A DNA stretch of 40,036 bases, from positions 1 through 40,036 of the IMG/VR virus record IMGVR_UViG_3300032233_000872; one strand, given 5' to 3'. A program made the position numbers and the translations under genes. The notes beneath the pieces were generated by a model. It saw only the letters and a program-made list of their open reading frames with translations. It was not told the origin of the DNA and did no database searches. How positions within the stretch are numbered: position 1 is the stretch's first letter; each line of letters opens with the position of its first letter. Shown here piece after piece: positions 466 to 38,370 of this stretch. The stretch is from a virus (taxonomy: Duplodnaviria > Caudoviricetes).

Positions 466-988
466 GGTCAGTCCCGAAGAACTCGTCACACAAATCTAGG
501 TACTCCGTTGTCAACTGTTCCATCCTCGGAAAAATGTAATGAATATCCTGAATAGCATCAGCCAACTTTTCGGCAATCTCCCTCCACTTGTTGCGCTCCG
601 CTGTGAGCGCCCTCATAGTGGCAGACTGCATAGCAATAACATCCATTTCTGTCTCCTTCTTTTGATTTTCAATTATCTCTTTCTTCATGTGTAAAGTTTT
701 CTCCCACGGTTCAGGTGGGGTGATGGTGCTTTTTCCCTGATACCCACTTTGCGCCCAATGAGGCTTGATATCTTCATTAACAGGGATGGTGCTGTGTACT
801 CCTTTCTGGCTAGTGACAGGCATGTGAACCTCTGCAAGAGCGAGAACATTCTTGGGGTCATTACCCAACAATGCTTCGTACAAAATGTCCTGAGCCTGAG
901 CACCATAGTCAGCCTTAATGAACGTTGTTACTGTTGCGGTTACTGTATAAAACATTTTTCTCCTTAGTTTGTTTTCCATTGTAGCCAC
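458..988 (-). CDS. Hypothetical protein with C-terminal coiled coil
   Basis: 176-aa ORF packed in the minus-strand operon; exact start uncertain. Confidence 0.7.
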   Translation of the reverse strand: MATMENKLRRKMFYTVTATVTTFIKADYGAQAQDILYEALLGNDPKNVLALAEVHMPVTSQKGVHSTIPVNEDIKPHWAQSGYQGKSTITPPEPWEKTLHMKKEIIENQKKETEMDVIAMQSATMRALTAERNKWREIAEKLADAIQDIHYIFPRMEQLTTEYLDLCDEFFGTDRG

Positions 989-1392
989 GGATCGTCGTGG
1001 CGGTCTTGTGAATATTCATATAACTCGTATGCAGCCTCAAGATTATTTCTAGGGTTCAACAACTCGGTTGACTTAGAAACAATCTTCTTGCTACGTAAAT
1101 ACGTAATCCAACTATAGTCATTGATCTGAGCCAAGCCCCAATCCCGTGACCAAGTAGAACCGTCACTACGACTGTTCTCATTGATCGCTTTGGGCATACA
1201 GCGTGACTCACGCCAAATGATCTTGTCCAATCTGACCCAATCCCTACGGGAGAAACCCACATCAAGTGCGAGCCTACGCCATTGCGGACAGTTGTCTTTT
1301 GGTTTGTTTGCGTTAACGGTAGAAACAGAAATGGTTGGGACTGTTAGCCCAACCACCACTGCCATTGCAAGTTTGGATATACGTTTAGTCAT
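964..1392 (-). CDS. Secreted lytic transglycosylase (SLT/lysozyme-like fold)
   Basis: N-terminal signal/anchor helix; IIWRESRC (catalytic Glu-Ser), DWGLAQIN, LLNPRNNL, terminal PW; AGGAG RBS. Confidence 0.85.
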   Translation of the reverse strand: MTKRISKLAMAVVVGLTVPTISVSTVNANKPKDNCPQWRRLALDVGFSRRDWVRLDKIIWRESRCMPKAINENSRSDGSTWSRDWGLAQINDYSWITYLRSKKIVSKSTELLNPRNNLEAAYELYEYSQDRHDDPWLQWKTN

Positions 1393-2107: not shown

Positions 2108-2322
2108 TCTTTCTCCTTTATGTTTTTTGTTATTGAACCTAACCCCAGCATTTCGATGGTAGAGAATGGCACATAGTGCCATGTCTCCCTCCACTTGATG
2201 CCTTCGTAATCAACTACAACCACTTGAAGATCCATGAGATTGACCCCTGTCTCTTCATAGTTTGTAACCGTTACAAGCCCCCTACGGGTGGCTATCTGCA
2301 TATTACACTTGATAGATATCAT
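2104..2322 (-). CDS. Hypothetical protein, 72 aa
   Basis: Start MISIKC at 2322 with GAGGAG RBS. Confidence 0.6.
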   Translation of the reverse strand: MISIKCNMQIATRRGLVTVTNYEETGVNLMDLQVVVVDYEGIKWRETWHYVPFSTIEMLGLGSITKNIKEKE

Positions 2323-3295
2323 ACTGCTCCTCATCACTGGTGTTAGAGAACTTGAACGAACCATAGTTCGGTGCTGTCGGAACAAACGTGTTGTTACACC
2401 ACTGAACCACCTCGTCCTCGGTCATCTTGCGGTAGAACGGCTCATAGTTCTGATCCTCATCATTATCCCAACAATGACAATCTTTCACCAACCAGCCACA
2501 CCACATGCATGAGCCACAAGTGTGACACTCGTGAACGTCCTCGTTCACAAGGTCATACACTTCGTTGGTGCCACAGAACGGACACTCAACCTCATACATG
2601 TCGCCATACCAATCCTCATCATCGTCCAACATGTATGTGTCACGTTCTATTGGTGTACGTGTAGTGTACGTGTTGCCAGTCCACGAACCATAACCATACG
2701 AAGAACTGTAGCCGTACGATGACTTAGCCGGTGCAGGTGTGTAACAGTACGAATAGTTACTCCACCACACGCCATCAGACCAGTGACCATCAGACTCGTT
2801 GAGAATATAGTACTCAGAGTTCGCATGACGGTCAGCAGTAAGCACAACCAACTTAGAACCCTTAGCCCAATTCTCTAAAGACTTACGGACAGTAAGATCA
2901 TCAAGAGCGTACACACCACCCAACGATGGCAGATACTCTGACGCAAAGATGTTCGTGTCACTACGATTGTCACCTACAGCGGGTTTGATGGGCAGAATGC
3001 CGTTGTGACCAACGACAGTTAGATCATCAGTACCTACCTTGAACGGATGACAATTCGTGGTGTCAGTAACACCATGAGTTGTTATACGTGAATGAAAGAT
3101 GGCATGACCCTTGACTCGTGAACGAACCTCAGTGAAGCGTTCTAACACTTCCTCAAAGTTCATACCCTTGCCAGTGACAATGGAATCGCCCATATGAACA
3201 GCGAAACCAAAACCATCATCATTGTACTTAGCACCGTTGCGTAGATCTTCCGAGTCCACATCAACGCCACTAGGAATAAAAGTTAATAAACACAT
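2303..3295 (-). CDS. Class II (Ntn) glutamine amidotransferase with Cys-rich C-terminal domain
   Basis: N-terminal MC nucleophile, NDDGFG, HSRITTHG, NCHPF, GHNGI, RSDT; C-terminal CPFC...CHTCGSCMWC...CHC. Confidence 0.9.
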   Translation of the reverse strand: MCLLTFIPSGVDVDSEDLRNGAKYNDDGFGFAVHMGDSIVTGKGMNFEEVLERFTEVRSRVKGHAIFHSRITTHGVTDTTNCHPFKVGTDDLTVVGHNGILPIKPAVGDNRSDTNIFASEYLPSLGGVYALDDLTVRKSLENWAKGSKLVVLTADRHANSEYYILNESDGHWSDGVWWSNYSYCYTPAPAKSSYGYSSSYGYGSWTGNTYTTRTPIERDTYMLDDDEDWYGDMYEVECPFCGTNEVYDLVNEDVHECHTCGSCMWCGWLVKDCHCWDNDEDQNYEPFYRKMTEDEVVQWCNNTFVPTAPNYGSFKFSNTSDEEQYDIYQV

Positions 3296-3312
3296 TCAGT
3301 ATACCTCTTTCC

Positions 3313-3337
3313 GATAATCCCGACGGTCGGGATTATC
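3313..3337. repeat. Palindromic element copy 1 (core only)
   Basis: GATAATCCCGAC-g-GTCGGGATTATC, 12-bp arms, 17 nt from the GATase start. Confidence 0.95.
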
Positions 3338-3368
3338 ATTTGTTTTTTGTTGAGTAATGCTATTGGTT

Positions 3369-4823
3369 CTAGTAAGAACTACGTGCATCAGAACGCTTGA
3401 TTAGTGACACAAGATTACTGTACTTAGGGTCATGTTCAACCCAATCAGCAAACACATTGAAGTCCATCTTGTGATGTTCTTTCATCTTGCTGACACGCCC
3501 TGCACTAGTGTACGCCCACAATGCATGAGTGAACTCTAGATAACCCAAAGCACGATTAGGATTCAACGCACCAGCGAAACAACGCAACTCAATAGTGTGT
3601 TGGTTACGACAATTCACAGCAACACTACGATCACCATACGAACGGTGACGTGCATAACCATAAATGTTGTCCAACTCATTCTCCGTAATAGTCCCATAGT
3701 GACTGTTACGTGAAGAGATGCGTGTCATTGCAGGCACGTTGTGATAGATGAACGACAAGAACCCGTAAAGATGCGGGCTAGAACTAGTACGTTCATGCAA
3801 ACGCTTAGTATAGAAAGCGTTGCGGTTGATATGGATATGGAAACCAACATCATGATTGTAACTAGGGTCATGATATTTGTATGAACGGAAACCATACTGG
3901 CTTAAAGCCTTGAATGGTTGCCAATCAAAATAGTTCTGATACATGTCAAGCGTATGAGGTTGTGTAACAATCTCAAAGCCATCACGCAATGAACCATCTT
4001 CCTTGAGGTATAGGTGCTCTTTGTCAATCATGTCCTGAAAGAAACTCGCACCATGATACAGATCGCACTTCTCTGATTCTGTTTCGCATTCAAAGCCCAT
4101 CATGGGTTCATGAACAAACTCTGAACGGTTGAAACGATGCTGACCACGAATCATCATTGCACGATCGTCTTCAGTACCAACAAAGAAGATGCGGTCATCA
4201 GCATCACGCATTGCACTGTAATTGAGAATGAGTCCACTATTGTCGTCACAACTGCATGGTCGGTCATCATCTTCATGATAAACCTCATCACACTGCTCAC
4301 AAGTTGCTATGCGATTCTCAAAGCAACTATGACAATAGTAATCGTCTCTACGATAACGGTTGTCAAACTGGTAGTAGTCACCATCACATATGTTGAGCAT
4401 TTCACCACACCCAGCACATTCTCTGGCATCTTCCTCACATGCCGTACACAATGTGATGTGTGTGTGTTCCCTGCTACTAAGACGCACAGGTTCCTCACAC
4501 CATTCACATTCATCAGCACAACTAGGACACACCGAAGTCATGAGATACTCTCTCTGCCCCTGCAAAACAGAGGTAACGACAATATTCTCAGGATCGTGCA
4601 CCCTAGGAACCAACCTAGTGTCGTAAGACCGTATGAAGTTCATCACCTCATGGTGTCTTGCGTCAGAGCAATCGGCACATTGAACCACAGCGTACTGTGG
4701 AAACAATGGACGATCACTGTAGTCAGTTGGCACTGTGTGCTGACTCAGGTACGTACGGTAAGAACCGTACCCGTGTTGCTCAATAATTCTGTCCCCGAGG
4801 GACATATGGGTTCCGTTAGGCAT
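3369..4823 (-). CDS. Putative amidoligase (COOH-NH2 ligase, glutamine-synthetase-like fold) with multi-CxxC N-terminus
   Basis: GFECETE, KEDGSL..GFEIVTQP, GFHIHIN, RSVAVN, TIELR motifs; seven CxxC pairs in the N-terminal half; start MPNGTH at 4823 with AAGGAG RBS. Confidence 0.88.
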   Translation of the reverse strand: MPNGTHMSLGDRIIEQHGYGSYRTYLSQHTVPTDYSDRPLFPQYAVVQCADCSDARHHEVMNFIRSYDTRLVPRVHDPENIVVTSVLQGQREYLMTSVCPSCADECEWCEEPVRLSSREHTHITLCTACEEDARECAGCGEMLNICDGDYYQFDNRYRRDDYYCHSCFENRIATCEQCDEVYHEDDDRPCSCDDNSGLILNYSAMRDADDRIFFVGTEDDRAMMIRGQHRFNRSEFVHEPMMGFECETESEKCDLYHGASFFQDMIDKEHLYLKEDGSLRDGFEIVTQPHTLDMYQNYFDWQPFKALSQYGFRSYKYHDPSYNHDVGFHIHINRNAFYTKRLHERTSSSPHLYGFLSFIYHNVPAMTRISSRNSHYGTITENELDNIYGYARHRSYGDRSVAVNCRNQHTIELRCFAGALNPNRALGYLEFTHALWAYTSAGRVSKMKEHHKMDFNVFADWVEHDPKYSNLVSLIKRSDARSSY

Positions 4824-4867
4824 TGTATTCTCCTTGTTTGTTTGTTTATATTTGTTTACCACTAGGT

Positions 4868-4933
4868 ATTAGTTAGTGGAGTTGAACACATAATCCCGAC
4901 AGTCGGGATTATGTGTTCTCACCATCAACCAAT
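4868..4933. repeat. Palindromic element copy 2 (extended hairpin)
   Basis: 17-bp perfect arms GAACACATAATCCCGAC-a-GTCGGGATTATGTGTTC (4884-4918) plus imperfect outer stem. Confidence 0.95.
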
Positions 4934-5260
4934 CAACTGAACTTTTCCAGTAAGTGTCCACCCTTTCCACGCTTCACTTCCATCAACCAATATTTTGTTT
5001 CCATTCTTGTATTGGAGGAAAAGAAACTTTTTACCCTTAGCCGTATCCTTGTCAAAACTATTTATAGCAGACAAATAATTCTTTTTTGTTTCACCAGAAC
5101 GATACACACCAATTTCTGTCATACCAATACCATTTGGTTCTGTTCTATACCACAACTCGCCATTAGATATGTAAAGCGTCTGAATAAACCAAGAAACTTC
5201 TTTAATTGGAGTTGAGTTAACAGAATGTATCATTCGCACTCTGTCGTTATAGTAATACAT
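4925..5260 (-). CDS. Hypothetical protein
   Basis: 111-aa ORF, TAATG coupling to the upstream gene. Confidence 0.7.
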   Translation of the reverse strand: MYYYNDRVRMIHSVNSTPIKEVSWFIQTLYISNGELWYRTEPNGIGMTEIGVYRSGETKKNYLSAINSFDKDTAKGKKFLFLQYKNGNKILVDGSEAWKGWTLTGKVQLIG

Positions 5261-5592
5261 TATTCAGTCTCACTATCTTCACTCGGTTCAGTAACAATCT
5301 CAAAGCCATCAAATAACGACAGATATGTTTCCGCCCTACCAATCGCCTTATGCAAAATTACTGCTTCAGTTTCCTTACCAAGCAAAAGGTTTATGATGGT
5401 TTCCTCACCATATTCGCTCATATCGTACCATTCGTTTAATGGGACTAACCTAACCCCAAAAAAACTTCTTGGACTATGAACTACTAAAGCAAGTTCTTTA
5501 GTGTGGTAACCATCAAACTTGTACTCAACAATAGAAAGCCAATGGCTTTTTCTGCTAAGACCAATAGTGATCCGATCGTGTTCAGCATTCAT
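5260..5592 (-). CDS. Hypothetical protein
   Basis: 110-aa ORF, tightly packed. Confidence 0.7.
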   Translation of the reverse strand: MNAEHDRITIGLSRKSHWLSIVEYKFDGYHTKELALVVHSPRSFFGVRLVPLNEWYDMSEYGEETIINLLLGKETEAVILHKAIGRAETYLSLFDGFEIVTEPSEDSETE

Positions 5593-5594
5593 TT

Positions 5595-5915
5595 CTATAT
5601 CTCCATTCCATAAGTGAGACGATTGAAGTCTCTAGTTGCCCAATAATGATCTTCAATAGCGTTATCCCATTCTTTATACATAATCACAGTCATACCGATT
5701 GCGCCAGTCTGCACTACAGCAGATATCACAACTGCACCGAGAGTTTGCGAACCCCAATATTCTTTAATCAAGAACTGATAGTTCACAAACGTAGTCATAG
5801 CCCACAAAATAAGCCACATAAAAAATACATAGCCACTCGTGTTCCGTTCAATCCTAGTGCGATTAACCTCGCTGTAGGCTTCACGAATATTTTGCAGATG
5901 TTGTTTCTTATCCAT
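5595..5915 (-). CDS. Two-TM membrane protein
   Basis: Start MDKKQH at 5915 with AAGGA RBS (the longer track ORF runs through the hairpin); two hydrophobic segments. Confidence 0.75.
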   Translation of the reverse strand: MDKKQHLQNIREAYSEVNRTRIERNTSGYVFFMWLILWAMTTFVNYQFLIKEYWGSQTLGAVVISAVVQTGAIGMTVIMYKEWDNAIEDHYWATRDFNRLTYGMEI

Positions 5916-5948
5916 TTCATTTTCCTTTTCTACTAAACACAATATCCG

Positions 5949-6012
5949 ATTGTGAATAGTGGTCGCCACATAATCCCGACAGTCGGGATTATGTGACAGC
6001 ACCATCAACAAT
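5949..6012. repeat. Palindromic element copy 3 (extended hairpin)
   Basis: 14-bp perfect arms CACATAATCCCGAC-a-GTCGGGATTATGTG (5967-5995); basal stem ATTGT/ACAAT. Confidence 0.95.
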
Positions 6013-6018
6013 TACTTA

Positions 6019-6405
6019 TTACGTATAGCGCACATCATAAGCAAACAAATAAGCAGTATGTTCATTAACTACTCCATTTACCTCAGTGCATACACTGATG
6101 GCAACATCGGTGTATTCATAACCACCAGCACGAACAGAAAGATAATTATCATCTTCCCCTGATGACGGATCCCAAAGAAACTCAATGTAATCGCAACCCC
6201 AGTTGATATCACTAGCGTATTTTTTTGCGAAGTCCAATGCTGAATGAAGATCAAAAAACAATCTACGAAAGTCTCTATGACCATACTCGCTGTCAGAAAC
6301 GTAAACAACATAAGCAGTTTTGTAACTATTGGCTGTTCTGTTAAACACGCAACAGTTACTAACCCACTCATCTGAGATCGCTTTAAGTTCTGATACCAAT
6401 TTCAT
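6019..6405 (-). CDS. Hypothetical protein
   Basis: 128-aa ORF lying between hairpin copies 4 and 3. Confidence 0.75.
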   Translation of the reverse strand: MKLVSELKAISDEWVSNCCVFNRTANSYKTAYVVYVSDSEYGHRDFRRLFFDLHSALDFAKKYASDINWGCDYIEFLWDPSSGEDDNYLSVRAGGYEYTDVAISVCTEVNGVVNEHTAYLFAYDVRYT

Positions 6406-6451
6406 ATCTTTATATCTCTCTCTCTATGTCTGTTTGTATTCCCTACCCGCA

Positions 6452-6514
6452 CTTACGAATAGTGGTGGGGACATAATCCCGAACTCGGGATTATGTCACC
6501 GCACCATCAGTAAG
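6452..6514. repeat. Palindromic element copy 4 (extended hairpin, variant centre)
   Basis: 13-bp arms GACATAATCCCGA-ac-TCGGGATTATGTC (6470-6497); basal stem CTTAC/GTAAG. Confidence 0.95.
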
Positions 6515-6519
6515 AACTA

Positions 6520-6756
6520 TTACGAATACCAATCCGTGATAGTTGTCCCGTCAATAATGGGCTTAATGATGCCGTTGCCAAAATTGCACAACTTCACACG
6601 AGCACCCAACGAGAACTCGTCGCAAAGATAATCACGCATGTAATCAGCCTTTGCAAGATACTCGCACTCACGAAACATGAAGCACTCACCGTCCCACATT
6701 TCAATCCACACTTGATTGCCCTGTAGGAACACTCCTGCTACATTTGTCTCACTCAT
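6520..6756 (-). CDS. Hypothetical protein, 78 aa
   Basis: Start MSETNV at 6756 after purine-rich GAAAGAGAGAA; between hairpin copies 5 and 4. Confidence 0.7.
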   Translation of the reverse strand: MSETNVAGVFLQGNQVWIEMWDGECFMFRECEYLAKADYMRDYLCDEFSLGARVKLCNFGNGIIKPIIDGTTITDWYS

Positions 6757-6814
6757 TATATTCTCTCTTTCTGCTTTAACTGCCACACTGTAGTGCGAAC
6801 AGTACCGCCACAAT

Positions 6815-6881
6815 AATTGTGAACAGTAGTGGTGCCATAATCCCGACGGTCGGGATTATGGCAACCGTACCGCTAACAATT
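6815..6881. repeat. Palindromic element copy 5 (extended hairpin)
   Basis: 15-bp arms TGCCATAATCCCGAC-g-GTCGGGATTATGGCA (6833-6863); basal stem AATTGT/ACAATT. Confidence 0.95.
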
Positions 6882-6885
6882 CTAA

Positions 6886-7299
6886 TTAAAGAATGTTCTG
6901 CAATGCCTTGATCAAAGCGAGACGCTCTGCCTTGGTGCACTTCGCATACTTTGATGCCTCATCAACCGCATTGAACTTCTTTGCTGTTGTTGTTTTCTTG
7001 CCACCAAGTTCACGCATCGTGAAGTACGATGCGTCGGATGCCTTAGCAAACTTGTTGTAGCAGTTGATCGCACTGCTGATCTTGTTCTGGATCGTCTTGA
7101 CGCTCTTGTCTGTTTTCTTTGCGATCTCTTTCGCAATGACGATCTTCACGCCTTGCTTGAGATCTTTTTCTGTTGCCTCCAACAACTCAACCAAACTCTT
7201 CCCAAACAACCACAAGTTCTCTTGTGACGTTCCGACTGAGTTCACGTAAGCGATTCCGCTTGCGATGGTCGTTGCTGTTGTTGCTGTGTTGCTTTTCAT
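6886..7299 (-). CDS. Lys/Ala-rich protein with possible HTH; first gene of the early operon
   Basis: 137 aa, AAAGGGG RBS; AKEIAKKTDKSVKTIQNKIS resembles a helix-turn-helix. Confidence 0.75.
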   Translation of the reverse strand: MKSNTATTATTIASGIAYVNSVGTSQENLWLFGKSLVELLEATEKDLKQGVKIVIAKEIAKKTDKSVKTIQNKISSAINCYNKFAKASDASYFTMRELGGKKTTTAKKFNAVDEASKYAKCTKAERLALIKALQNIL

Positions 7300-7325
7300 T
7301 TTTCTGTTCCCCTTTCAAGGGATAG

Positions 7326-7348
7326 ATAATCCCGACGGTCGGGATTAT
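7326..7348. repeat. Palindromic element copy 6 (core only)
   Basis: ATAATCCCGAC-g-GTCGGGATTAT, 11-bp arms, 26 nt from the 7299 start. Confidence 0.95.
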
Positions 7349-7587
7349 GGTTTGGATAGGCGACCACACACACACTGCATGGCTTATTGCACGCTTGTAT
7401 GCGCTGTCTCCCATATATAGTTATTGCTCGTATTGGCGCCTTTCGCTTGTTGCCCAATATGGGGAAGGGTTTGCGGTTTTGCGCTACAGCAGGCATGGGC
7501 GCATGGCCCCCCACCCGTACCCCAAATCAAAGGAGTCCCGACTCGTGCGTGTCTGAATTTATTTTCTTTTCTATTCTGGATAGGTAA

Positions 7588-24907: not shown

Positions 24908-27900
24908 ATGACTAACTATGATCCTCGTCTTGAACTTGCCCGACGTTTAGCCAACAGCCGTAAGACCAATACCCCATTGAACTTTGGGAATAAAATCAAT
25001 GTACCTACTACTGGTATAACTGATACTAAAACTAGAGATCTGTATAATCAGGTTACTGATACTAAACTGAGCATTACACAGCAGAATCCTAACTTGGCTG
25101 CACAGGTTCGTGCTATTGGTGGTGGATCATCCAGTAGTTTTGGCAGGCTTGGACGCAACCTCTTGGGTGTAGTGACCACAATAGACACTCCTAGGCGTGC
25201 TGTTATTTCTACTGTGCGTGAAGTAACAGATGTTCTTGATAGTGATCCCAATACGAAAGGTCGTCTTTCGGATTGGGCTAAACAGACCAAAGACCCTACT
25301 TATGGTTTTGGTAAAGCATTTCCAATGCAAGGTAACTTTGGTCGTTTTGTTGGGTTCATTGGTGACGTTGGTTTAGATCCTTTAACGTATGTTACTGCTG
25401 GCGCAAAAGGTGCTGCAACGTTTGGTGAACGTCTTGCATTGTATGAAACTCTTAGGGCTAAAGGTATTTCTACTGAAGTTGCTGGACAGTTTCTCCAGAG
25501 AGGTAAGACTGCTTTGACTAAGGCTGGTGTCACTAGCGAACAGTTGGCAGATATGGGTTTGAAGCGTTCTGGCATGTACATGTTTGGTTCTAAGTTGCGT
25601 ATCCCTTTGTCTGGTCCTGTTGGTGAAGCAATTCTTTCTGGCACATCTAGGGCTAAAGTTGGTTTTACTGGTACACGTTTGGGTGAAGTTTTGCAAAAAG
25701 GTTTCATGGGTACTGGGAAGAATCAAGAACAATGGATTCGTAGTTTTCGTTTGGCTTTAGCACGTAACGAACCATTGCCATTAAACATGCTAAAAGGCGC
25801 TGAACAGATTGCTGGTATTCCTGCTCGTGACATTGCCGTAGGGTTTTTAAATGCTAATACTGCTAGAGAAGCAGCACAAAATATTGCAAAAAAAGAATTT
25901 GGTATTCGTGTTGGAATAATGTTGAATGAGATTGGTCCAGAAAATATTGAACCATATCGCAATACTGTTTATCAAGTTATGGAAGGTACTAGACCTGCTT
26001 CTAATGCTGCTGAACAAAAACTTGCTCAGGATTTAAGTAAAATATATCAGGATGTTTGGGAGACGGTTAAAACTAGATATCAAGCAGTTGACCCTGAGGC
26101 AAGTAAAGGTTTTGTTAACGAGTATTTTCCTTGGGTAATTACTGATGATGCAAAGAAAATTTCTGCTGACCTTGATGCTCCTTGGGTTAAAGATTTGATG
26201 ACTGTTCTTGAACCTAATCCACTTGATCTTCAGGGTTCGTTTAAATCACGAACTTTGCAAGAAGGAAACAAATGGTTTTGGACAGTGGAGAATGGTGTCA
26301 AGAAAGACTATATTCTTAAAGAAGCAGATCTTAACATTACACGGTTGAATGAAATTTCTCGTAATGCTATTGGTGTTGACTTTTGGAAAACTGATGCTGC
26401 AGATGTTCTTGGTATCCACTATGTTGATTCTGCCAGCAAGAATATGGGTTTGCTTGAGTTGATTAAAGATCTTGATAGGTCTGGTGTTGCACGTAAAACT
26501 CTTCGTGAAGCAGGACAATATGAGGAGATGACTGCTGCACATGCTGCTGCTATGGGTTTGAAAGTTGAAGAACGTACTCAAGGGTTGAAAGATCTTGTAG
26601 ATGCTGTTGGAAATGCTGTTAAAGAGGTTAACGGTCGTTTGCCGGGTGCTGTAAAAGATCTCGAAGGTGTAGTGCTAAAGGCTGATCAAGAATTGGCTGC
26701 AGCAACCGTTGAAGCAGCAAGAGCAGGTCTTTTAAAGAACACTATTGTTCCAGATGAGTTTGTTGATTATTTCAATATCTTTAAAGAAGAACTAGCAAAA
26801 AATGCTGACTATGGTGCTGCTGTTCGTGCGGTTGAAGCAGAGATGGAAAGAGTAACTGGAAAACAAAACATTTTTGATTTAAAACAAAGATTCTTTGATT
26901 CATTTGAAAAAACTCCAGAATGGCAATTAATTCGTGATGATATACCTATTCTAACTGGACAGATAAGAAGAGGTCCAGCGGCGGCTAGAACTGTTGAGGG
27001 TGGTTTAGAGGGATGGCGTTCTAGAGTTGCGAACTTTGGTAGACCTGTTGCTGAAGTACCTTTAGTTGGTCCTACTACTCGTGAAGCAACAGTCAATGCT
27101 GCATCTATGGCTGCAGCGAAGAAACAACTATCTAATGCTAAACGAAAGTTAACCAATCTTCGTTCGCAATACGACAATATTTTTGAGTCAGAAATTCCTC
27201 ACCTTGCTGCTGCTACTAACGAAATGTTAGATAGACAAATTTCAAGCATTGATGATTTAGAGATTGCTATTGCTCAATGGCAAGATGAGGCTGACGCTTT
27301 GGCTCGCAGTATTCCTGCTACCAAAGGTCAGATAACTAAAACACAAAAAGGTATTAGCACTACAGCAGTTGCGTCTATGGAACAGCAGGCTAGGGTCAAT
27401 GCTCATCTGAAAGAGGTTAACGATTTAGCAGCAAGTATTCTTGATGATCTTGAACAGGCTATTCAACGTCACGAAGAATTTGTTGAATTAAGTAATATTT
27501 TGTCTACTTCAATGGACAAGATCATTGATGGTAAACGTGTTGCTGGCGTTGATGCTAAAAGACTTAAATCTATTATTGCTGGTACTGGTACAGGTAAAAG
27601 TTCTATAGAAACTTTTGGTAAAGATACTGGTGCGGTTAAACAATGGATTGGTGAAAACATTGACGGATTAGATTTCTTTAAAGAAATTCAATCCGTTGTT
27701 GGTGTTGCAAATGTTATAACTAAAGATGGTGTTAAAAGGATGACACTATCCGAAGTTTTTGAAGTTGTTGCTAGGGCTGGAATAGATATCAATAGTACGT
27801 TGGACAGTATTAATGCCGCTGCTTTTGTTATTGCTAGGGATATAAAATTTTATGGCAAGGATGCTGTCCCTGAAGTTTTGACTTCTTTGCGTAATGAATT

Positions 27901-30900
27901 GATGGAAATGGTCAAGATACAGGCGGAAAAAGTTGGGTTTGCTCAACGTGCACGTATGGGCGATCAAGTGTTCAAAATTGCACCAGAAGTTAAAGATGCA
28001 GAACAAAGAATAAATTATTTCTTTAAAGTAATAAATAAAAATGAAGATCTTTTAACGCAACTTGAAAAACGTTGGGAGTTTAGTGATATTGCTCGTGAGC
28101 ATATCAACCTTGCAGGGATTGACGTCAATATAAATTTTGAAGATTATTTGAATGAGCATGCTTCACTATTTGGTTCAGACATATTAGATGATCAAGCATT
28201 TGTTGATTCGTGGATAAGACAACCTGAAAACACTACACTTGCGCAAATACTTGAACTTAACGACGATAACTTTAAAAGATTTACTGATGAATTAGATACG
28301 GCAAACAAAAATATTGATGAACTTTGGAATCAGTACGGTGACAGAATCTCTACTATGAGATCACACAAAGCATTGAAGGACTCCAAGGGTAAACCAATGC
28401 AGTTTTCACGTCAAGACCTTGAAGGTCTTACTTATACTACGCAGGAATATGCACAGCAGTTAACTGACCGACTTGCTGCTTATACTGTTGCTAGCGAAGT
28501 TGAACGCAGGTTCTCTGCCTTGGGCATGGAACTTGCGTTAATGGGTCATGAAGTACCTACCGATGGTATGCATGCCGCAATTATGCGTAAAGTTGCGCAA
28601 GAACATTTAGAGGCTGTATCAGCGTCACAAAATACTATTACTACAGCCTACAACAAACTTTCTGCGATAAGAGATGAGTATGAGGTTATTCGTGGTGCTG
28701 CACAATCACCATCATATGCGGGTGAAACCCCTCAAAATGCTTTGAACAGGTTGTTTGAAGAAGCATACGAATCTGAACCCGAAGCAATGAACCAAGTTTT
28801 TGGTTCTATTATTAAATTCCATTCTGACGTAAAAGGATATGAAAGCAGACTTAAAAGTTTTGGTGCTAAAAGAAGAGCAGAATACATTGAGCCTGTAAAT
28901 GCTTTCTTTGAAAGTACACCTGCTTTAAAACAGATGGTCCTTGAAGTAGGGTTGACAAAGGTTGATGTAGATGCTGTGGGTAGAGAATCTCGTATCAGGG
29001 CAATAGTTTTAAAGCAACTAACTGACGAAAATTTTGATCCAGCAATCTTGAATGTATCTGATCAAGAGGTGCAAGCAATTAGGGGAAGAGCACGAGAATT
29101 AGTATCTTTGGATCGTCAAACAAGAGGACAGAAAACAGAATTTGTTGCAGATCAATTGCGTCCTTGGTTTAACGAGGTTCAACCTTATGTGCGATATACT
29201 GAAAAGGATGCTAAGAGAGCATTGAAAGTTTTTGCACCTTTGAATGATGAGTATTCCATTAGGCGTTTCTTTGTTGATCAACTTGGTGGTTCTAGACGTA
29301 CTCGTGCAGCAAATTCTTTGAGTGCTGGGCAAACCTCTATACAAACCATTCCCGGTGCTTTAAATGTTGAACTTTCTAATATTCGTTCAAGAAGCCGACA
29401 TATTTTTAATGTTCTTGATCCGCAGACAGATATAAACGAATTTTTGCGTGATCCTTTCGGTTTGCCTACTGGACCTTTTTCTTATCTTGAAAGTTTGAAG
29501 GGTTTAAGCAATACTTTAGATCAACAAATTAAAAGAGTTTCTGGTCTTGATTCAGTTAAAGGTATTGTTACTGCAGAAAAACAAGCATTAAAAGTTGGTG
29601 AATCTGCAAGACTTGCTAATGCAAGACTTGCCGAAACTGACCCTACAGCGGCTATGGCTGCTAGGTCGTCTAAGTATGTTTTGACTCCAGAGAACCAGCA
29701 GAAAGTTGCTAACGCTGTACGTAAAATGCGTGCAGAACATCTTCGTTTGACAAATAAACCCGAGTATGCAATTGCTTTGCATGATCAACAAATGACTGAA
29801 GTCTTGCGTAAACTTGCTGCTGTTGATGGTCACACAATGTCTGATTTGCGCAGTGGTGATGCAGGATGGGTTATATCACCTAAGCCAAGTAAAATTAAAC
29901 TTGCTGATCATGGTGTAGATGATACTATTGCAAACACGTATTTTAAGATTGAAGATGCTGCTGGTGAATACACTGTAGACAGTTATCTTATCAGTCCTGA
30001 TGGTACTAGAGTTATCAACGTTGAACAGTCATCACGAGCAATGGCAGCCAAAAGGGAAATGATTAATAAAGAAATCAGACGTTTAATGAAAATAAACTCT
30101 GATGATCCAATGATTGACAAACTTATTGATGAATCAAATGCTTTGATTGTGCAAAAGTGGCGTCACGTAACTGTTAAAAAAGTTAGAGATGCTAGCGAAG
30201 AAGTTGATGTTGCTAACATGTTTAAGTTAAGCACTGTTCAAACGCCTATTGATAAACTTGAAGGTGAAGCGTTAACTAATAGTATTCTTTTTGGTGGTAT
30301 TACTGGTGAACAGTCTGCACAAAATGTTGCTGACATTATTACTAGTGTAAGATTTGCTACTGAGAATAAATTTGCTACTTTCATGGACCCTAATGCTGCT
30401 AGGGTTAGAAGCCAGACAGCGGACTATTTGTTTGCTAATGATGTTATTGATGACAACATGCGCCAGATGATTAAATCTGGTGCACCTATATCTGATGTAT
30501 TGAATAATCTTATTAGAACACCTGATGGTTCATCTACGACAATTGGTGATATTATTCGTAATTGGCAGTATTCTTTGCTTGGCAAAGAAGCAACTGTGCC
30601 AATTGATCAGTTTCAGTCTGAGGTTGTTTCAAAATTAACTGGTCTTGAAGGTCGTTTGTCTTTCTCCGAGGACGAGTGGGGTGCATTGTTTACTACGCCT
30701 TTCTCTGATGGTGAGGCATTAAGAACCACAAGTAGAATTAGATCTCTTGAATCTCAGTTAAATAAGTTTCGCAAGGCCGCACAAGATGGTCGTAGTCTCA
30801 TTGAGGAAAATGGCGCTCGTGTAGGTGTCCAAAAACGTATTCGAGAAATTGAAGCAGAGATTGCTGATCTTAATCTGCAACTAAAAACTAGGTCTAAAGC

Positions 30901-33700
30901 AACACAGGGTGCTGCTTTGACCAAGTTTCAACAGTTGTTTGATCAGTTTGACTCTGCACGTATTAATGCCCAGAATGAACTTGCTAAGTGGCGCAAGTAT
31001 GCTGATGAAGGTTTAGAAAAAGTTGTTGTAGAAACCCCTAGAGGTCCTAGGAGTGTTTCTGTAGCGTCAAAACTTCAGGAGTTGGAAACTGCTTCTACTC
31101 GCATTAAGAGTCTTAATGATACGGTTGACAATTTTATTGTCAGCCGTACTGGCACTACAGCAAGTGCTGAGAATATTGCTTTCCGCAGAAATGGTTTACA
31201 ACGTTCTTGGGAGTCATCTCCTTCTTACCGTACCATTGCTAATGTTGAGGCTATTTCTTCTAGTCCAGAAATGCAGTTTTATAAATCTCAACGTTCAAGC
31301 GTTAGAGATTTAGAAAAAACCAAGGCAGAGGTTGATAAGCAAATCAAAATTAAACGTGGCAATCTTTCTTATACCGAGAAAGAACTTGTTGAATCTGCGC
31401 AGCAGATTATTAATACTGTTAAAGAGTTTGATGGTGGTGACTTGTCTACTGTTGGACCACTCATGGATTCTTTACGGAATGCTTTTGTTATAACTGCAGA
31501 CAATACTGTTCAGGCTGTAAAGTATGATGGTCTTAGCAGGGATATTCCTAAGGCTACTAAAAATCTTATTGCTGAAATTCAGGCTAGTTTTCCAGAGCAA
31601 CTTCCGTTGTTCACTGTTGATGCTAAGCGTGTACAGCAATTAGAAGAGGCTGTTAACGTTGCTCGTTTTAATGCTTTTGAAAATAGTTTTCTTGTAGGTC
31701 AAGAGACACGTCATGCTAAAGATGCTATGAGTCCGTACAATAAGCAGATAGCAGATCTGCGTGCACGTTTGGTTACGTTACGTGGCAAAGAAGCAGCACA
31801 GTTTACTGAACAGGAAGCATTGTTGGAACGTATTGCTACTGCTATGGGTATTAGCGAAGAGGCTAAAGCAAAAATTCAACGTGAATGGGTTGATGGTTAC
31901 GGCGTTAATAGAAAAGGTCAAGTTTCTACTAAGCCTAAAGCGAAACGAGTTGCTGGTATTTTGCCTAGTGCGGAAGAACGTGTTGTAGCAGCACAAAGTT
32001 TGTATAACTATATTTCATCAGAATACAATAGTATTCTTCCTAGGTTTGAAATTGCTGCAAACGTTTCTGATGCTATTGAATTAAATGTTAGACCAAAAAT
32101 TGAAGAGATGACTCGTCTTATTAAACAAAAGAAAGATTTTGGTAGGGTTGCTATTCGTGGTGAAGCAACCACATCAACATATAAGGGTGTTACTACTGTA
32201 AGGGATGCAAACCTTGAACAGTTCCAAACTTGGTTAAAGGAGGCTACTGATGCCTTGGATGTAGCGTCACTAGATCCTACTGATCCTTTAAATGCTGTTT
32301 TGGCTGAGGCTGCCAGAGCGCAAACTGTTTACGCAAACACTTTGCTTAGCACTAATCAACTCAAGGCTTTCCAACAAATAGAATTAGCAAGATCGTTTCC
32401 TAGTTATATAACTGATGAAATTGTTAAACGCTCTGATGAAGCGTATGTGAGTTTAGCAAAGATTGGTTTGCCGGGTATGGAAGTACCTCAAGAAGTTATA
32501 AATATGTTTGGTGAACTGCGTAGATTTAAAGACCCTGCTTTCTCTAGGGGTTTTACTAAATTCCTTGATACTTACACAAAGTTTTTTAAACGTTACGCAA
32601 CACTCAGCCCCGGCTTCCATGTGCGTAACGCAATGACTAACTCATTTGCATTGATTGCTGCTGGCGGTGATGTTAGGAATTTCCCTGCAGGTTTGCGCAT
32701 GTTTAACGATATGGAAAGAGCGTTGAAGAGTGGCACTACATTGGACGACTGGTTGTTGTCTATTGCTGATCCTGTTCAACGTTCTTATGCTGATGTTGCT
32801 TCTCGTTCAATGTTTGCTGCTGGTGGTGGACAAACTGAAGAACAAATTGGAAAGTTTTTGAGCGAAAAAGGCGATAACTATATTGTTGGTAAGAGTCGTC
32901 TTGTTGGTGGGAAGATTGAAAACTCTGCACGTTTCATGCTTGGTTATGATAGTGCTGTTAAAGGTTTTGATTTCAATGTTGCTGCAGCACGTACAAAACG
33001 TTTCTTGTTTGACTATGAAGATATCGGTCAGGTTGACCGAGCAATGAAAACTATTATCCCGTTCTGGATGTGGACTAGTCGAGCATTGCCTTTGCATTTG
33101 ACTAACATGATTGTGAATCCTAAGCCGTATCAAATATATCGTTCATTTGAACGCAACTTTGAATTCAAAGAAAAACTTGATTTGACTCCTGATTGGGTCA
33201 AGGGACAGGGTGGATTTAAAATTACCAGTGGGATGTATTTGATGCCTGATCTGGGATTCAATAAAATTCCAGAAACAGTTGGACAGATTGGTGATCCAGT
33301 TAAACTGTTGGCAAACGTCAACCCTGCGCTCAGGGTTCCTTTGGAATTGGCTGTTAATAAACAGTTTTATAACAACAGGCAGTTCTCTGATAAACCTAAA
33401 GATATTTCTGGTGGTGGTACAGCAAACTTCTTGTTGCCACTACTTGAGGCTTTGGGTAAAGGCGGAACCAACGCAGAAGGTAAACAAGTCGCTAACGAAA
33501 AAGCATTGTATTTGCTTAGTAGTTTGTTGCCTACTGTTGGTCAGGCTGAACGACTATTACCATCCAGTCCTAGTGGTAAGTCAAACTTACTTGGATATTT
33601 GGGTGTGCCGCTACGTAGTGAATCAGAGTCAATGAAGCAAGCATCATTGTATGAAACATTAAACAAGTTAAATAAGTTAAACAATAGTCAGGGGTTCTAA
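24908..33700 (+). CDS. Giant internal virion / large polyvalent-type protein, 2930 aa
   Basis: Uninterrupted ORF; N-terminal DVGLDPLTYV; C-terminal SPGFHVRN...FDYE...IPFWMW; long helical middle. Confidence 0.8.
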   Translation: MTNYDPRLELARRLANSRKTNTPLNFGNKINVPTTGITDTKTRDLYNQVTDTKLSITQQNPNLAAQVRAIGGGSSSSFGRLGRNLLGVVTTIDTPRRAVISTVREVTDVLDSDPNTKGRLSDWAKQTKDPTYGFGKAFPMQGNFGRFVGFIGDVGLDPLTYVTAGAKGAATFGERLALYETLRAKGISTEVAGQFLQRGKTALTKAGVTSEQLADMGLKRSGMYMFGSKLRIPLSGPVGEAILSGTSRAKVGFTGTRLGEVLQKGFMGTGKNQEQWIRSFRLALARNEPLPLNMLKGAEQIAGIPARDIAVGFLNANTAREAAQNIAKKEFGIRVGIMLNEIGPENIEPYRNTVYQVMEGTRPASNAAEQKLAQDLSKIYQDVWETVKTRYQAVDPEASKGFVNEYFPWVITDDAKKISADLDAPWVKDLMTVLEPNPLDLQGSFKSRTLQEGNKWFWTVENGVKKDYILKEADLNITRLNEISRNAIGVDFWKTDAADVLGIHYVDSASKNMGLLELIKDLDRSGVARKTLREAGQYEEMTAAHAAAMGLKVEERTQGLKDLVDAVGNAVKEVNGRLPGAVKDLEGVVLKADQELAAATVEAARAGLLKNTIVPDEFVDYFNIFKEELAKNADYGAAVRAVEAEMERVTGKQNIFDLKQRFFDSFEKTPEWQLIRDDIPILTGQIRRGPAAARTVEGGLEGWRSRVANFGRPVAEVPLVGPTTREATVNAASMAAAKKQLSNAKRKLTNLRSQYDNIFESEIPHLAAATNEMLDRQISSIDDLEIAIAQWQDEADALARSIPATKGQITKTQKGISTTAVASMEQQARVNAHLKEVNDLAASILDDLEQAIQRHEEFVELSNILSTSMDKIIDGKRVAGVDAKRLKSIIAGTGTGKSSIETFGKDTGAVKQWIGENIDGLDFFKEIQSVVGVANVITKDGVKRMTLSEVFEVVARAGIDINSTLDSINAAAFVIARDIKFYGKDAVPEVLTSLRNELMEMVKIQAEKVGFAQRARMGDQVFKIAPEVKDAEQRINYFFKVINKNEDLLTQLEKRWEFSDIAREHINLAGIDVNINFEDYLNEHASLFGSDILDDQAFVDSWIRQPENTTLAQILELNDDNFKRFTDELDTANKNIDELWNQYGDRISTMRSHKALKDSKGKPMQFSRQDLEGLTYTTQEYAQQLTDRLAAYTVASEVERRFSALGMELALMGHEVPTDGMHAAIMRKVAQEHLEAVSASQNTITTAYNKLSAIRDEYEVIRGAAQSPSYAGETPQNALNRLFEEAYESEPEAMNQVFGSIIKFHSDVKGYESRLKSFGAKRRAEYIEPVNAFFESTPALKQMVLEVGLTKVDVDAVGRESRIRAIVLKQLTDENFDPAILNVSDQEVQAIRGRARELVSLDRQTRGQKTEFVADQLRPWFNEVQPYVRYTEKDAKRALKVFAPLNDEYSIRRFFVDQLGGSRRTRAANSLSAGQTSIQTIPGALNVELSNIRSRSRHIFNVLDPQTDINEFLRDPFGLPTGPFSYLESLKGLSNTLDQQIKRVSGLDSVKGIVTAEKQALKVGESARLANARLAETDPTAAMAARSSKYVLTPENQQKVANAVRKMRAEHLRLTNKPEYAIALHDQQMTEVLRKLAAVDGHTMSDLRSGDAGWVISPKPSKIKLADHGVDDTIANTYFKIEDAAGEYTVDSYLISPDGTRVINVEQSSRAMAAKREMINKEIRRLMKINSDDPMIDKLIDESNALIVQKWRHVTVKKVRDASEEVDVANMFKLSTVQTPIDKLEGEALTNSILFGGITGEQSAQNVADIITSVRFATENKFATFMDPNAARVRSQTADYLFANDVIDDNMRQMIKSGAPISDVLNNLIRTPDGSSTTIGDIIRNWQYSLLGKEATVPIDQFQSEVVSKLTGLEGRLSFSEDEWGALFTTPFSDGEALRTTSRIRSLESQLNKFRKAAQDGRSLIEENGARVGVQKRIREIEAEIADLNLQLKTRSKATQGAALTKFQQLFDQFDSARINAQNELAKWRKYADEGLEKVVVETPRGPRSVSVASKLQELETASTRIKSLNDTVDNFIVSRTGTTASAENIAFRRNGLQRSWESSPSYRTIANVEAISSSPEMQFYKSQRSSVRDLEKTKAEVDKQIKIKRGNLSYTEKELVESAQQIINTVKEFDGGDLSTVGPLMDSLRNAFVITADNTVQAVKYDGLSRDIPKATKNLIAEIQASFPEQLPLFTVDAKRVQQLEEAVNVARFNAFENSFLVGQETRHAKDAMSPYNKQIADLRARLVTLRGKEAAQFTEQEALLERIATAMGISEEAKAKIQREWVDGYGVNRKGQVSTKPKAKRVAGILPSAEERVVAAQSLYNYISSEYNSILPRFEIAANVSDAIELNVRPKIEEMTRLIKQKKDFGRVAIRGEATTSTYKGVTTVRDANLEQFQTWLKEATDALDVASLDPTDPLNAVLAEAARAQTVYANTLLSTNQLKAFQQIELARSFPSYITDEIVKRSDEAYVSLAKIGLPGMEVPQEVINMFGELRRFKDPAFSRGFTKFLDTYTKFFKRYATLSPGFHVRNAMTNSFALIAAGGDVRNFPAGLRMFNDMERALKSGTTLDDWLLSIADPVQRSYADVASRSMFAAGGGQTEEQIGKFLSEKGDNYIVGKSRLVGGKIENSARFMLGYDSAVKGFDFNVAAARTKRFLFDYEDIGQVDRAMKTIIPFWMWTSRALPLHLTNMIVNPKPYQIYRSFERNFEFKEKLDLTPDWVKGQGGFKITSGMYLMPDLGFNKIPETVGQIGDPVKLLANVNPALRVPLELAVNKQFYNNRQFSDKPKDISGGGTANFLLPLLEALGKGGTNAEGKQVANEKALYLLSSLLPTVGQAERLLPSSPSGKSNLLGYLGVPLRSESESMKQASLYETLNKLNKLNNSQGF

Positions 33701-37318: not shown

Positions 37319-38370
37319 AGCATCTCCGTTTGTTTCCATGTTTGTTGACGTAGGTATTGGTCGGGTAGTTCCCCGTTCTTTAGTTCCCACAAACGTCCTG
37401 TGCGTACATCCAACTCAAAGTCCACATCATCAACAAGGCTACCTGCTGGACGTTTATTCTTCAGCAGTGACATTGTTAGCGTGTACTCATGGATACGTTG
37501 GTCGTGCTTCAGTTCGTCGAGACGTTCTTGCGCACGTTCACTGTGGTTGCGTTCCAGTTTCTCTTGAAGTTCGTTGATCTCTGATGCGATCTCGTACTTC
37601 TTACGGCGAACACCAATCACTGTTGTTGCTTGTTGTTCACCACCGAACGAACCTGATGACATGGTTAGTTTTTTACCGTCGGCTCCTGATGTTCGTGATG
37701 TCTGATGCAACACCATTAACGGGATGTCGTGCCTACGTCCGAATGACTTGAGGAACTGTGCTTTTGCCGGCACTGTTTCTCCTGCTTCAACAAGTTCTAG
37801 ATAGTCCACTACAACGAGTTCGGGTTTATCGCCCCATACGTCACATACTTCTTTGTAGCCACGTTCCATATCGCTAGGTACTAGTGGTTGGTCAAATACA
37901 GCGAGGTTAGGGAAGTCTTCTTCGGCTGTACGCCTCAGTAGGTTGATTGCGTCTGCGTCATCGCAGGCAATGCGGTTCTCTAAGTCTCTTGCGTCAACGC
38001 CGTGATGCATGCAAGCAAGTTTGGTTAGTACCAAGGTGCGTGGTTCATCAGGGATGAACAGTGCTATCCGTTTGTCACGGTTAGCGAGCAGTGTGTGTAA
38101 CAACGCTAACGTTTTTCCACCGTGGCTGTAACCAATCATTAGTGCGAGTTCTCCTGCAGCGATACCACGCATTTCTTTGTCAAGTGGGTCAATGCCCAAG
38201 TAGACACGTTCGTTAGGCGACTGTGCCCAACGAACAAAAGATTCTGCAGCGTCACTGAGTGGCGAGTACATACGATATTCGGGTAGGGAAACGGAAACAG
38301 GGGGCATTGCTGCCCCCTGTTCTACCGTATCCCAGCCCGCAATTATTTCTTCTGCGGTTAATCTAGGCAT
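37315..38370 (-). CDS. dnaB: DnaB-like (SF4) replicative helicase
   Basis: GELALMIGYSHGGKT, VVVDYL, HQTSR, GGEQQA, KNKR. Confidence 0.85.
   Translation of the reverse strand: MPRLTAEEIIAGWDTVEQGAAMPPVSVSLPEYRMYSPLSDAAESFVRWAQSPNERVYLGIDPLDKEMRGIAAGELALMIGYSHGGKTLALLHTLLANRDKRIALFIPDEPRTLVLTKLACMHHGVDARDLENRIACDDADAINLLRRTAEEDFPNLAVFDQPLVPSDMERGYKEVCDVWGDKPELVVVDYLELVEAGETVPAKAQFLKSFGRRHDIPLMVLHQTSRTSGADGKKLTMSSGSFGGEQQATTVIGVRRKKYEIASEINELQEKLERNHSERAQERLDELKHDQRIHEYTLTMSLLKNKRPAGSLVDDVDFELDVRTGRLWELKNGELPDQYLRQQTWKQTEML

Follow-up and report, generated by a model that had tools for sequence, protein, structure and literature searches.

We analysed a stretch of 40,036 nucleotides from a virus (Duplodnaviria; Caudoviricetes; IMG/VR record IMGVR_UViG_3300032233_000872), here called the window, which amounts to a complete phage genome, a circle of 39,913 bp with a 123-nt end repeat. 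The window contains six copies of a core palindrome, ATAATCCCG-N4/5-CGGGATTAT, with 7-bp arms and a spacer of 4–5 nt, and four of these form the tips of long hairpins between small genes. By comparing relatives, we found that the hairpins have two layers: a palindromic tip that changes together with the product of the first early gene, which we call gene A, and an outer stem, conserved on the sense strand, that is retained under new tips. The sequence comparisons indicate that the outer stem very probably acts as RNA, and together with structure modeling they make it probable that the tip is bound by the gene A protein on DNA. The full reading, in which a gene A operator sits at the tip of an RNA stem cut by an RNase III-type enzyme, has in our judgement an even chance of being correct. 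A preliminary description of the window, made from its letters, had proposed a structured RNA acting between early genes. That proposal stands for the outer stem; the element as a whole is not one RNA motif, because its apical palindrome is a separable signal, and both the link between palindrome and gene A and a second, downstream pairing of the 3′ arm had been overlooked.

Palindromic tips and their candidate reader

All six copies lie in the leftward arm of the genome, which consists of small genes and which, from its layout, we infer to be the early region; they are restricted to positions 3314–7348 and are all intergenic. Copy 1 (3314–3336), upstream of a class II glutamine amidotransferase-like gene, and copy 6 (7326–7348), just upstream of gene A and a putative autoregulatory operator, consist of the core without a stem, as had been noted. 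Copies 2 to 5 are the tips of hairpins on the minus strand, located at 4868–4933 (core 4890–4912), 5949–6012 (core 5970–5992), 6452–6514 (core 6473–6494, with a 4-nt spacer) and 6815–6881 (core 6837–6859). Scanning the 39,913-bp circle with up to five mismatches allowed revealed no seventh core copy. Against viral contigs, the exact core pattern gave zero matches, and a looser pattern gave at least 121 loci, nearly all of them single terminator-like hairpins of unrelated phages; among the looser-pattern matches listed, the sole relative was the contig behind loci L096–L098 and L122. In most of loci L001–L121, a lone TAATCCCG-loop-CGGGATTA hairpin with A/T runs on both sides recurs; these hairpins are likely bidirectional terminators of unrelated phages. 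Directly after copy 6, a small hairpin (window 7304–7323) covers the likely ribosome-binding site of gene A.

Relatives were taken as the best 80 of 334 loci anchored on the small terminase subunit gene (TerS). A repeated palindrome is present in 43 of the 54 loci with at least 1,500 nt upstream and absent from 10, and the palindrome called in L219 was judged spurious. The relatives' sites have 7-bp arms and a spacer of 4 or 5 nt that varies inside one genome, and each genome carries four to six copies, near-identical to one another and different from those of its relatives. We counted at least 21 half-site forms, 18 in the main set and three from L123, L244 and L258. Compared with the window, L122 has the same half-site with the spacer altered in four copies, L244 and L258 have point variants in every copy, and L123, L149 and L153 have unrelated palindromes with the outer stem retained; the same outer stem carries unrelated tips in L123, L149, L153, L166, L176 and L258. 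In most relatives the first site coincides with gene A's ribosome-binding region or first codons, and in L153, L166 and L178 it lies in frame within the first gene. The tip is thus separable from its surroundings, because stemless and in-frame coding copies exist, the spacer varies while the arms hold, and the stem is kept under new tips. Such a combination of constant arms, an unconstrained spacer and no dependence on RNA context is characteristic of sites in duplex DNA that are bound by a dimeric protein. Some relatives have a further site well downstream, at distances from the TerS start of 7388 (L165), 6662 (L154), 6728 (L222) and 4831 (L198); the site in L165 precedes an exonuclease-like gene, the one in L198 is apparently in coding sequence, and the window has no distal site.

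Gene A (6886..7299, minus strand), the first early gene, encodes a 137-aa protein of an unclassified family that we regard as the putative palindrome binder, a hypothesis set down before it was tested. Its putative recognition helix (codons 67–83; 7051..7101, minus strand) includes the sequence KTIQNKISSA. Homologues stand at the same place across the family, with 110 further representatives, and the helix-turn-helix (HTH)-like stretch is kept in L122, which has the same half-site. Of the 80 loci, 45 extend 2,400 nt or more upstream of TerS. Of these, 35 have both the gene and the sites, 7 have neither and none has the gene alone, while three (L149, L208 and L214) have sites without a match to the gene A hidden Markov model (HMM); in L149 and L208, a same-sized open reading frame (ORF), which we aligned by position, occupies the place of gene A. 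The co-occurrence of gene and sites is significant by Fisher's test (p = 2.6e-6), a value that overstates the case because the loci are related.

The link between the protein and its half-site peaks at the helix. Across 31 proteins, a sliding window peaks on KTIQNKISSA (partial r 0.40–0.47), and windows clear of this helix do not exceed a partial r of 0.21. Across 27 dereplicated proteins, and with TerS and the remainder of the protein controlled for, helix identity follows half-site identity with a partial r of 0.49, a value reached by none of 5000 permutations; the best of 41 other windows gave 0.28. Several individual comparisons point the same way. L153, L165, L169 and L198 share the half-site AGTTGGT and the helix motif DK[GS]D and are 19–36% identical elsewhere, and the window and L150 have a half-site of their own and the helix motif KTIQNKI in common. 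Conversely, the proteins of L193 and L222 are 72% identical outside the helix, and both helix and site differ; in the pairs L169/L170 and L201/L207, TerS DNA is 97–98% identical while gene A and the sites are unrelated.

The AlphaFold model of the gene A protein is all-helical (mean predicted local distance difference test, pLDDT, 81.5), with helix 45–63, a three-residue turn and helix 67–83 in an HTH-like arrangement. A homodimer was predicted with a score of 0.70, against 0.00 for the best of three controls. Of the solved structures, 20 of 30 pairs came up to the mark, compared with 1 of 23 single chains; the runs agreed in at least 81% of contacts, with pLDDT of at least 79. The predicted interface is formed by the N-terminal helices and the C-terminus, and helix 67–83 lies mostly outside it. 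Searches with the model gave no PDB or BFVD match with E ≤0.001 (best VIA Z 6.9, on unspecific helical bundles), a profile search of PDB sequences gave no significant match, and no homologue was found in cultured phages. A Pfam match to Sigma70_r4_2 is weak (E 0.045). Homology to the 294-aa early protein of SP6, which itself has a weak DUF3102 match (E 0.13), went undetected by hhalign or HMM. In many relatives (L171:7074–7523, L202, L207, L210, L154, L195, L181, L193 and L224), gene A apparently starts with ATT, ATC or TTG preceded by a good ribosome-binding site, which hints that translation is kept weak deliberately.

The outer stem and its second pairing

The hairpins of copies 2, 3, 4 and 5 measure 66, 64, 63 and 67 nt, with the limits first assigned to them. 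Their minus-strand folds have z-scores of −7.5 to −8.1, with none of 200 shuffles folding as well, and all eight folds, four on each strand, beat 200 of 200 shuffles. Equal or better folding on the plus strand, which the preliminary description had named as counting against its reading, is seen in copy 4 only; in the other three copies the minus strand is favoured, by 3.2 to 7.1 kcal/mol. Several features reported there recur in our analysis: CCACUA is present in all four internal copies and UGAUGG in copies 2–4, the basal stem is indeed swapped as a pair (AUUGU/ACAAU for CUUAC/GUAAG), and the hairpins begin 6 nt (copy 3), 5 nt (copy 4) and 4 nt (copy 5) after the upstream stop codon or overlap it (copy 2, stop at 4925). 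The pairing of UGAUGG with CCACUA around an A-C mismatch is the correct register for copy 2, which belongs to a stem type that we call class II, and not for copies 3–5, which belong to class I. In class I, according to both folding and covariation, a U-C mismatch and a C/AC loop flank a helix of 7 bp, which in copies 3 and 4 is GAUGGUG/CACUAUU.

Both classes are hairpins of 25–30 bp, about two helical turns, with compensatory changes. A class II stem consists of a lower helix, an N-C mismatch, three base pairs, a UGA/RAYU loop and an upper helix; in copy 2 the loop is a 3x4 internal loop, UGA (4919–4921)/AACU (4880–4883). A class I stem consists of a basal helix, the U-C mismatch, seven base pairs with an invariant G-U, the C/AC loop and an upper helix. 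We compared 69 sites in 15 loci, of which 24 are class II and 20 class I by loop motif. The loops are invariant in all unique elements, UGA/RAYU in 19/19 of class II and C/AC in 18/18 of class I, motifs that doubled as anchors for class assignment. The six positions of the class II upper helix are all paired in 19/19 unique elements, with up to four pair types per position, in a set that was partly gathered by a pattern fixing this helix.

In the scored columns, 291 of 304 cells are paired in class II and 214 of 221 in class I, counts that lose some of their weight in favour of an RNA stem to the omission of the mismatch columns and of the two outermost class I columns, and to the class I 7-bp helix having been located by requiring pairing. 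None of 5000 whole-arm shuffles matched the observed pairing. Two-sided changes occur in 11 of 16 columns (class II) and 9 of 17 (class I), or 20 of 33 together, in sequences that are related to one another; 52 and 37 cells (89 in total) are G-U, and none is A-C. A tally in which the sense strand is preferred over the antisense strand in 27/27 cases drawn from the 69 sites was selected on the sense fold, and we do not use it as evidence. Covariation in homologous elements, whose absence had been named as grounds for giving up a structured RNA, is therefore present, and no described motif matches the elements in the Rfam check that had been suggested; the Rfam covariance models gave two weak matches elsewhere, at chance level and below the gathering score.

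The lower 3′ arm of the stem has an alternative partner just downstream in 34 of 39 elements (18/21 in class II, 16/18 in class I; p ≤0.05 against shuffled downstream sequence). The matching control, an upstream partner for the 5′ arm, was found in 6 of 42 elements (1/23 and 5/19) and is not general. The downstream partner changes with the arm, from CACAAU/AUUGUG to CACAAA/UUUGUG, and the downstream hairpin is followed by an A-rich leader and then the ribosome-binding site. In the window, these alternative hairpins of 3′ arm and downstream leader lie on the minus strand at 6803..6828 for copy 5 (p 0.02), 6443..6462 for copy 4 (p 0.04), 5932..5960 for copy 3 (p 0.01) and 4859..4879 for copy 2 (p 0.005), where CCACUA pairs with a downstream UAGUGG.

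We also considered a tRNA-like reading, in which the flanks of class II resemble D- and T-loop words. Among 20 loci matched by the class II pattern, 7 are unrelated and single-copy (L245, L248, L249, L252, L253, L260 and L261), and the T-loop reading is rejected because compensatory pairing runs through those bases. A third stem type occurs at the first site of L165, L169, L170, L185, L198 and L203, with a 3′ arm, RCURYUCA, that resembles that of class I.

Proposed mechanism, alternatives and known systems

In the model that we propose, the gene A protein would be the first to be made; as a dimer it would occupy all six tips on double-stranded DNA and reduce early transcription, both its own and that downstream, by autorepression plus roadblock. 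Autorepression is suggested by the position of the first site at the start of gene A, and roadblocks by the later sites; whether the effect on early genes is repression or something else seems to us evenly balanced. Gene A may instead bind the tips for a different job, such as anchoring or organising DNA, pacing genome entry, activation or the exclusion of co-infecting relatives. Most sites lie far from predicted promoters, as in the Cluster O mycobacteriophages, whose authors, in the part of their account that concerns the repeat, doubted that it has a transcriptional role (PMC4351075); the weak Atlas leads of gene A are to DUF3102 and a plasmid partition domain, and its fast switching of specificity suggests conflict between phages. 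However, the first site is mostly at gene A's ribosome-binding region or first codons, the usual place of an autorepressor, and library scans found neither ParA nor an integrase, so that we consider such a non-repressive role unlikely.

By analogy, the element may work like known dispersed sites in its tip, like T7-type RNase III signals in its stem and like the promoter early stem-loops (PeSLs) of T4-type phages at its joints. The 7-3-7 repeat of Cluster O, as described in the relevant part of PMC4351075, likewise has 7-bp inverted arms and a variable spacer, is mostly intergenic in a leftward region, and was proposed to be the target of a dimeric protein and to act as points of recombination for indels. 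That part of the account gives 34 copies of one cluster-wide sequence, with no identified reader and no RNA stem described, whereas here a genome has four to six copies, the spellings number at least 21, and there is a candidate reader that covaries with them. The stoperators of Cluster A phages are also dispersed, phage-specific sites, mostly off promoters, whose motif diverges with the cognate repressor; they are presented in the pertinent part of PMC6550527 as asymmetric 13-mers, with 20–30 per genome, in temperate phages. In contrast, the sites here are palindromic, six within 4 kb, confined to early genes and partly in RNA stems, the genome has no integrase or ParA match, and the candidate binder is the first early gene. 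The element lacks defining features of stoperators, and likewise of PeSLs.

For the stem, the proposed chain of events begins with an early region transcribed as one long message. A host RNase III-type enzyme would cut at or beside the asymmetric loop; the upstream message would then end in the upper hairpin, and the freed 3′ arm would refold into a 5′-terminal hairpin before the A-rich leader and ribosome-binding site. The outcome would be separate, stabilised mRNAs, with the downstream message released and protected as in T7, and the palindrome would supply a ready-made tip for the processing stem. Hairpins at the 5′ end stabilise mRNA, and on the T7 early map the early region carries RNase III processing signals. 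Published accounts, in the parts that treat substrate structure, describe RNase III activity as governed by helix length and internal loops, with internal loops able to hold the enzyme to one cut, after which a protective hairpin remains at the 3′ end (PMC1540722, PMC3867540); R1.1 is a substrate of this kind of study (PMC1540722), and the RNase III of S. coelicolor is reported in the section concerned to cut an intergenic hairpin on either side of its 4/4 loop (PMC10126417). As in signals of the T7 R1.1 type, to the extent that these accounts portray them, the hairpins here are long, irregular and intergenic, lie in the early region and have an asymmetric loop that may direct a single cut, which could leave a protective 3′ hairpin. 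Unlike R1.1, they have a swappable palindromic tip tied to a phage protein and a conserved downstream partner for the 3′ arm; moreover, this phage is not T7-like, and its predicted cleavage is a reading of structure. We lean modestly toward an RNase III-type cut.

If the tips are gene A sites and the stems remain uncut, the stems might be U-less terminators, pause sites or folding switches that tune read-through or translation of the next gene. U-less hairpin terminators occur in some high-GC bacteria, the hairpins begin 4–6 nt past stop codons, and the two pairings of the 3′ arm are mutually exclusive. Against this, there is no U-tract, a terminator scan skips copies 2–5, no promoter was seen between the element and the next start codon, the ribosome-binding site is free in both folds, and the invariant loop sequences suggest recognition by a protein. 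We hold uncut stems to be rather improbable.

The elements are also the joints at which early genes are exchanged. Almost every relative has its own gene order between the sites, and the edges of elements are where blastn similarity breaks off; in the comparison with L122, it stops at 6012, resumes at 6414–6526 and again at 7270. The variable cassettes of the window, all on the minus strand, are a gene between copies 5 and 4 (6520..6756; 78 aa from ATG, or a 97-aa ORF from TTG 6813), a gene between copies 4 and 3 (6019..6405; 128 aa, replaced by an unrelated gene in L122) and three genes between copies 3 and 2 (4925..5918; 106, 110 and 111 aa). The 4-nt spacer of copy 4 is identical to that of L122, and in L244 the flanks of copy 4 are the same and the tip is its own; copy 4 was likely imported and left unconverted. 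At the position of copy 1, L123 has a different palindrome (L123:3155–3180), with a new stem-embedded site just upstream, and this palindrome is possibly an older one; one arm of a site at L123:930–980 contains a 10-bp tandem duplication. The copy 4 spacer, the L123 palindrome and the arm duplication give the impression of a concerted change caught in progress. Recombination or gene conversion between copies would shuffle genes and, upon a swap of gene A, spread the new operator spelling.

In this the elements resemble PeSLs, which the relevant parts of PMC2839356 and PMC4122927 describe as short repeated elements between variable early genes that serve as joints for shuffling, and the bounding of gene gains and losses by elements is a PeSL-type feature. 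PeSLs combine an intrinsic terminator with a sigma-70 promoter in those same accounts, whereas the element here has no U-tract and no promoter and carries a protein-linked palindrome. One could further suppose that the hairpin is a DNA recombination substrate, an attC-, REP- or PeSL-like single-stranded fold that serves cassette shuffling, with gene A reading the extruded hairpin. Cassette swaps do end at elements, strand asymmetry suits single-stranded DNA too, and the arm duplication and the older palindrome persisting in L123 would fit. But library scans detected no recombinase or HUH transposase, the downstream hairpin and the position before ribosome-binding sites point to mRNA, stemless sites are common, and ordinary recombination needs no more than 60–90 bp of homology. 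We find a recombination substrate highly improbable, and a single-stranded DNA role of the element, the other possibility first suggested, less likely than an RNA one. Finally, we give almost no credence to the tips being hairpin promoters of an N4-like virion RNA polymerase: there are multiple hairpins in the early region and a giant protein in the virion module (2930 aa, 24908–33700), but that protein has no polymerase match, nor any significant match, in PHROGs, Pfam, NCBIfam or PDB sequences. In addition, the arms are constant and the loop is not, and the tip changes with gene A, not with the structural module.

Several observations weigh against a gene A operator at the tip of a processed RNA stem. 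The relatives are not independent, and the seven negative loci represent few lineages. Helix and half-site do not always agree: L216 and L225 have the same half-site with 33% helix identity, L207 shares 6/7 bases with L193 and L216 with 25–33% helix identity, and L182 shares 6/7 bases with L208 with 8% helix identity. Gene A has no significant Pfam or PHROG family, with no Pfam match in 32 members, and its Atlas leads to DUF3102 and HTH, at 0.86–0.88, fall below 0.9. A rigid dimer would not easily accommodate the mixture of 5-nt and 4-nt spacers in the window. In many distant relatives the tips stand without a long stem, so that processing is not general to the family. Copy 4, with the limits first assigned, folds as well on the plus strand (−34.7) as on the minus strand (−34.0), and G-T wobble gives a strand preference in single-stranded DNA too. 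There is no clear sigma-70 promoter at the first site, and this, together with the failure to find an integrase or ParA, means that the purpose of repression is something we can only infer.

More broadly, and tentatively, this apparently lytic, uncultured podophage family may possess a private lock-and-key code, in which the recognition helix of gene A and its four to six operators are respelled together and which might serve exclusion or immunity among co-infecting relatives; in one branch, the operators would be the tips of two-state RNA processing elements that are also joints spreading genes and operator spellings. If true, dispersed phage palindromes of the kind seen in the Cluster O mycobacteriophages, where the protein partner had been left open, would gain an identified reader. 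The family would offer about 20 natural matched protein–site pairs on one small scaffold, usable for studying how DNA-binding specificity switches and as candidate orthogonal repressors, and two classes of compact RNA stem, each with refolding built in, would be defined. It would also raise the question of how five or six separated sites change in concert, with intermediates visible in the unconverted copy 4 here and the leftover older palindrome in L123. A literature search covering main texts only, with few subscription papers, found no account of the element or of the gene A family.

Genome setting

A rightward virion module comprises TerS (8138), TerL, a portal and an Mx8-like capsid protein. 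Library scans of the window proteins detected no integrase, ParA or RNA polymerase, and ARAGORN found no tRNA. A promoter scan gave 9 promoter-like sites against 12.6 expected, and a terminator scan left copies 2–5, which have no U-tract, uncalled. Among genome contigs, TerS had a single match over its full length, a 38-kb contig of a metagenome-assembled genome that was not trusted as a host call, and a search for homologues of the SLT/lysozyme-like protein pointed to no host. The gene for that protein (window 964–1392) encodes an N-terminal hydrophobic segment and lies outside the virion module, in the leftward arm.

Between copies 2 and 1 lies a conserved 484-aa gene (3369..4823, minus strand), which matches PHROG families of unknown function and which, by its motifs, we label amidoligase-like; it has homologues in 19 mycobacteriophage records, such as Marvin. 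With the class II glutamine amidotransferase-like gene, it forms a conserved pair (window 2303–4823) that may serve host takeover by modifying peptides or the wall. Upstream of the early region, a GAGTC-CC-GACTC inverted repeat (window 7533–7544; motif 7529–7544) is possibly a genome-end or packaging signal, and a GAGTCCC word stands about 170–240 nt upstream of the first site in many relatives. An 11-bp GC-rich hairpin in the 5′ part of the helicase gene (window 38296–38321) is kept in L122.

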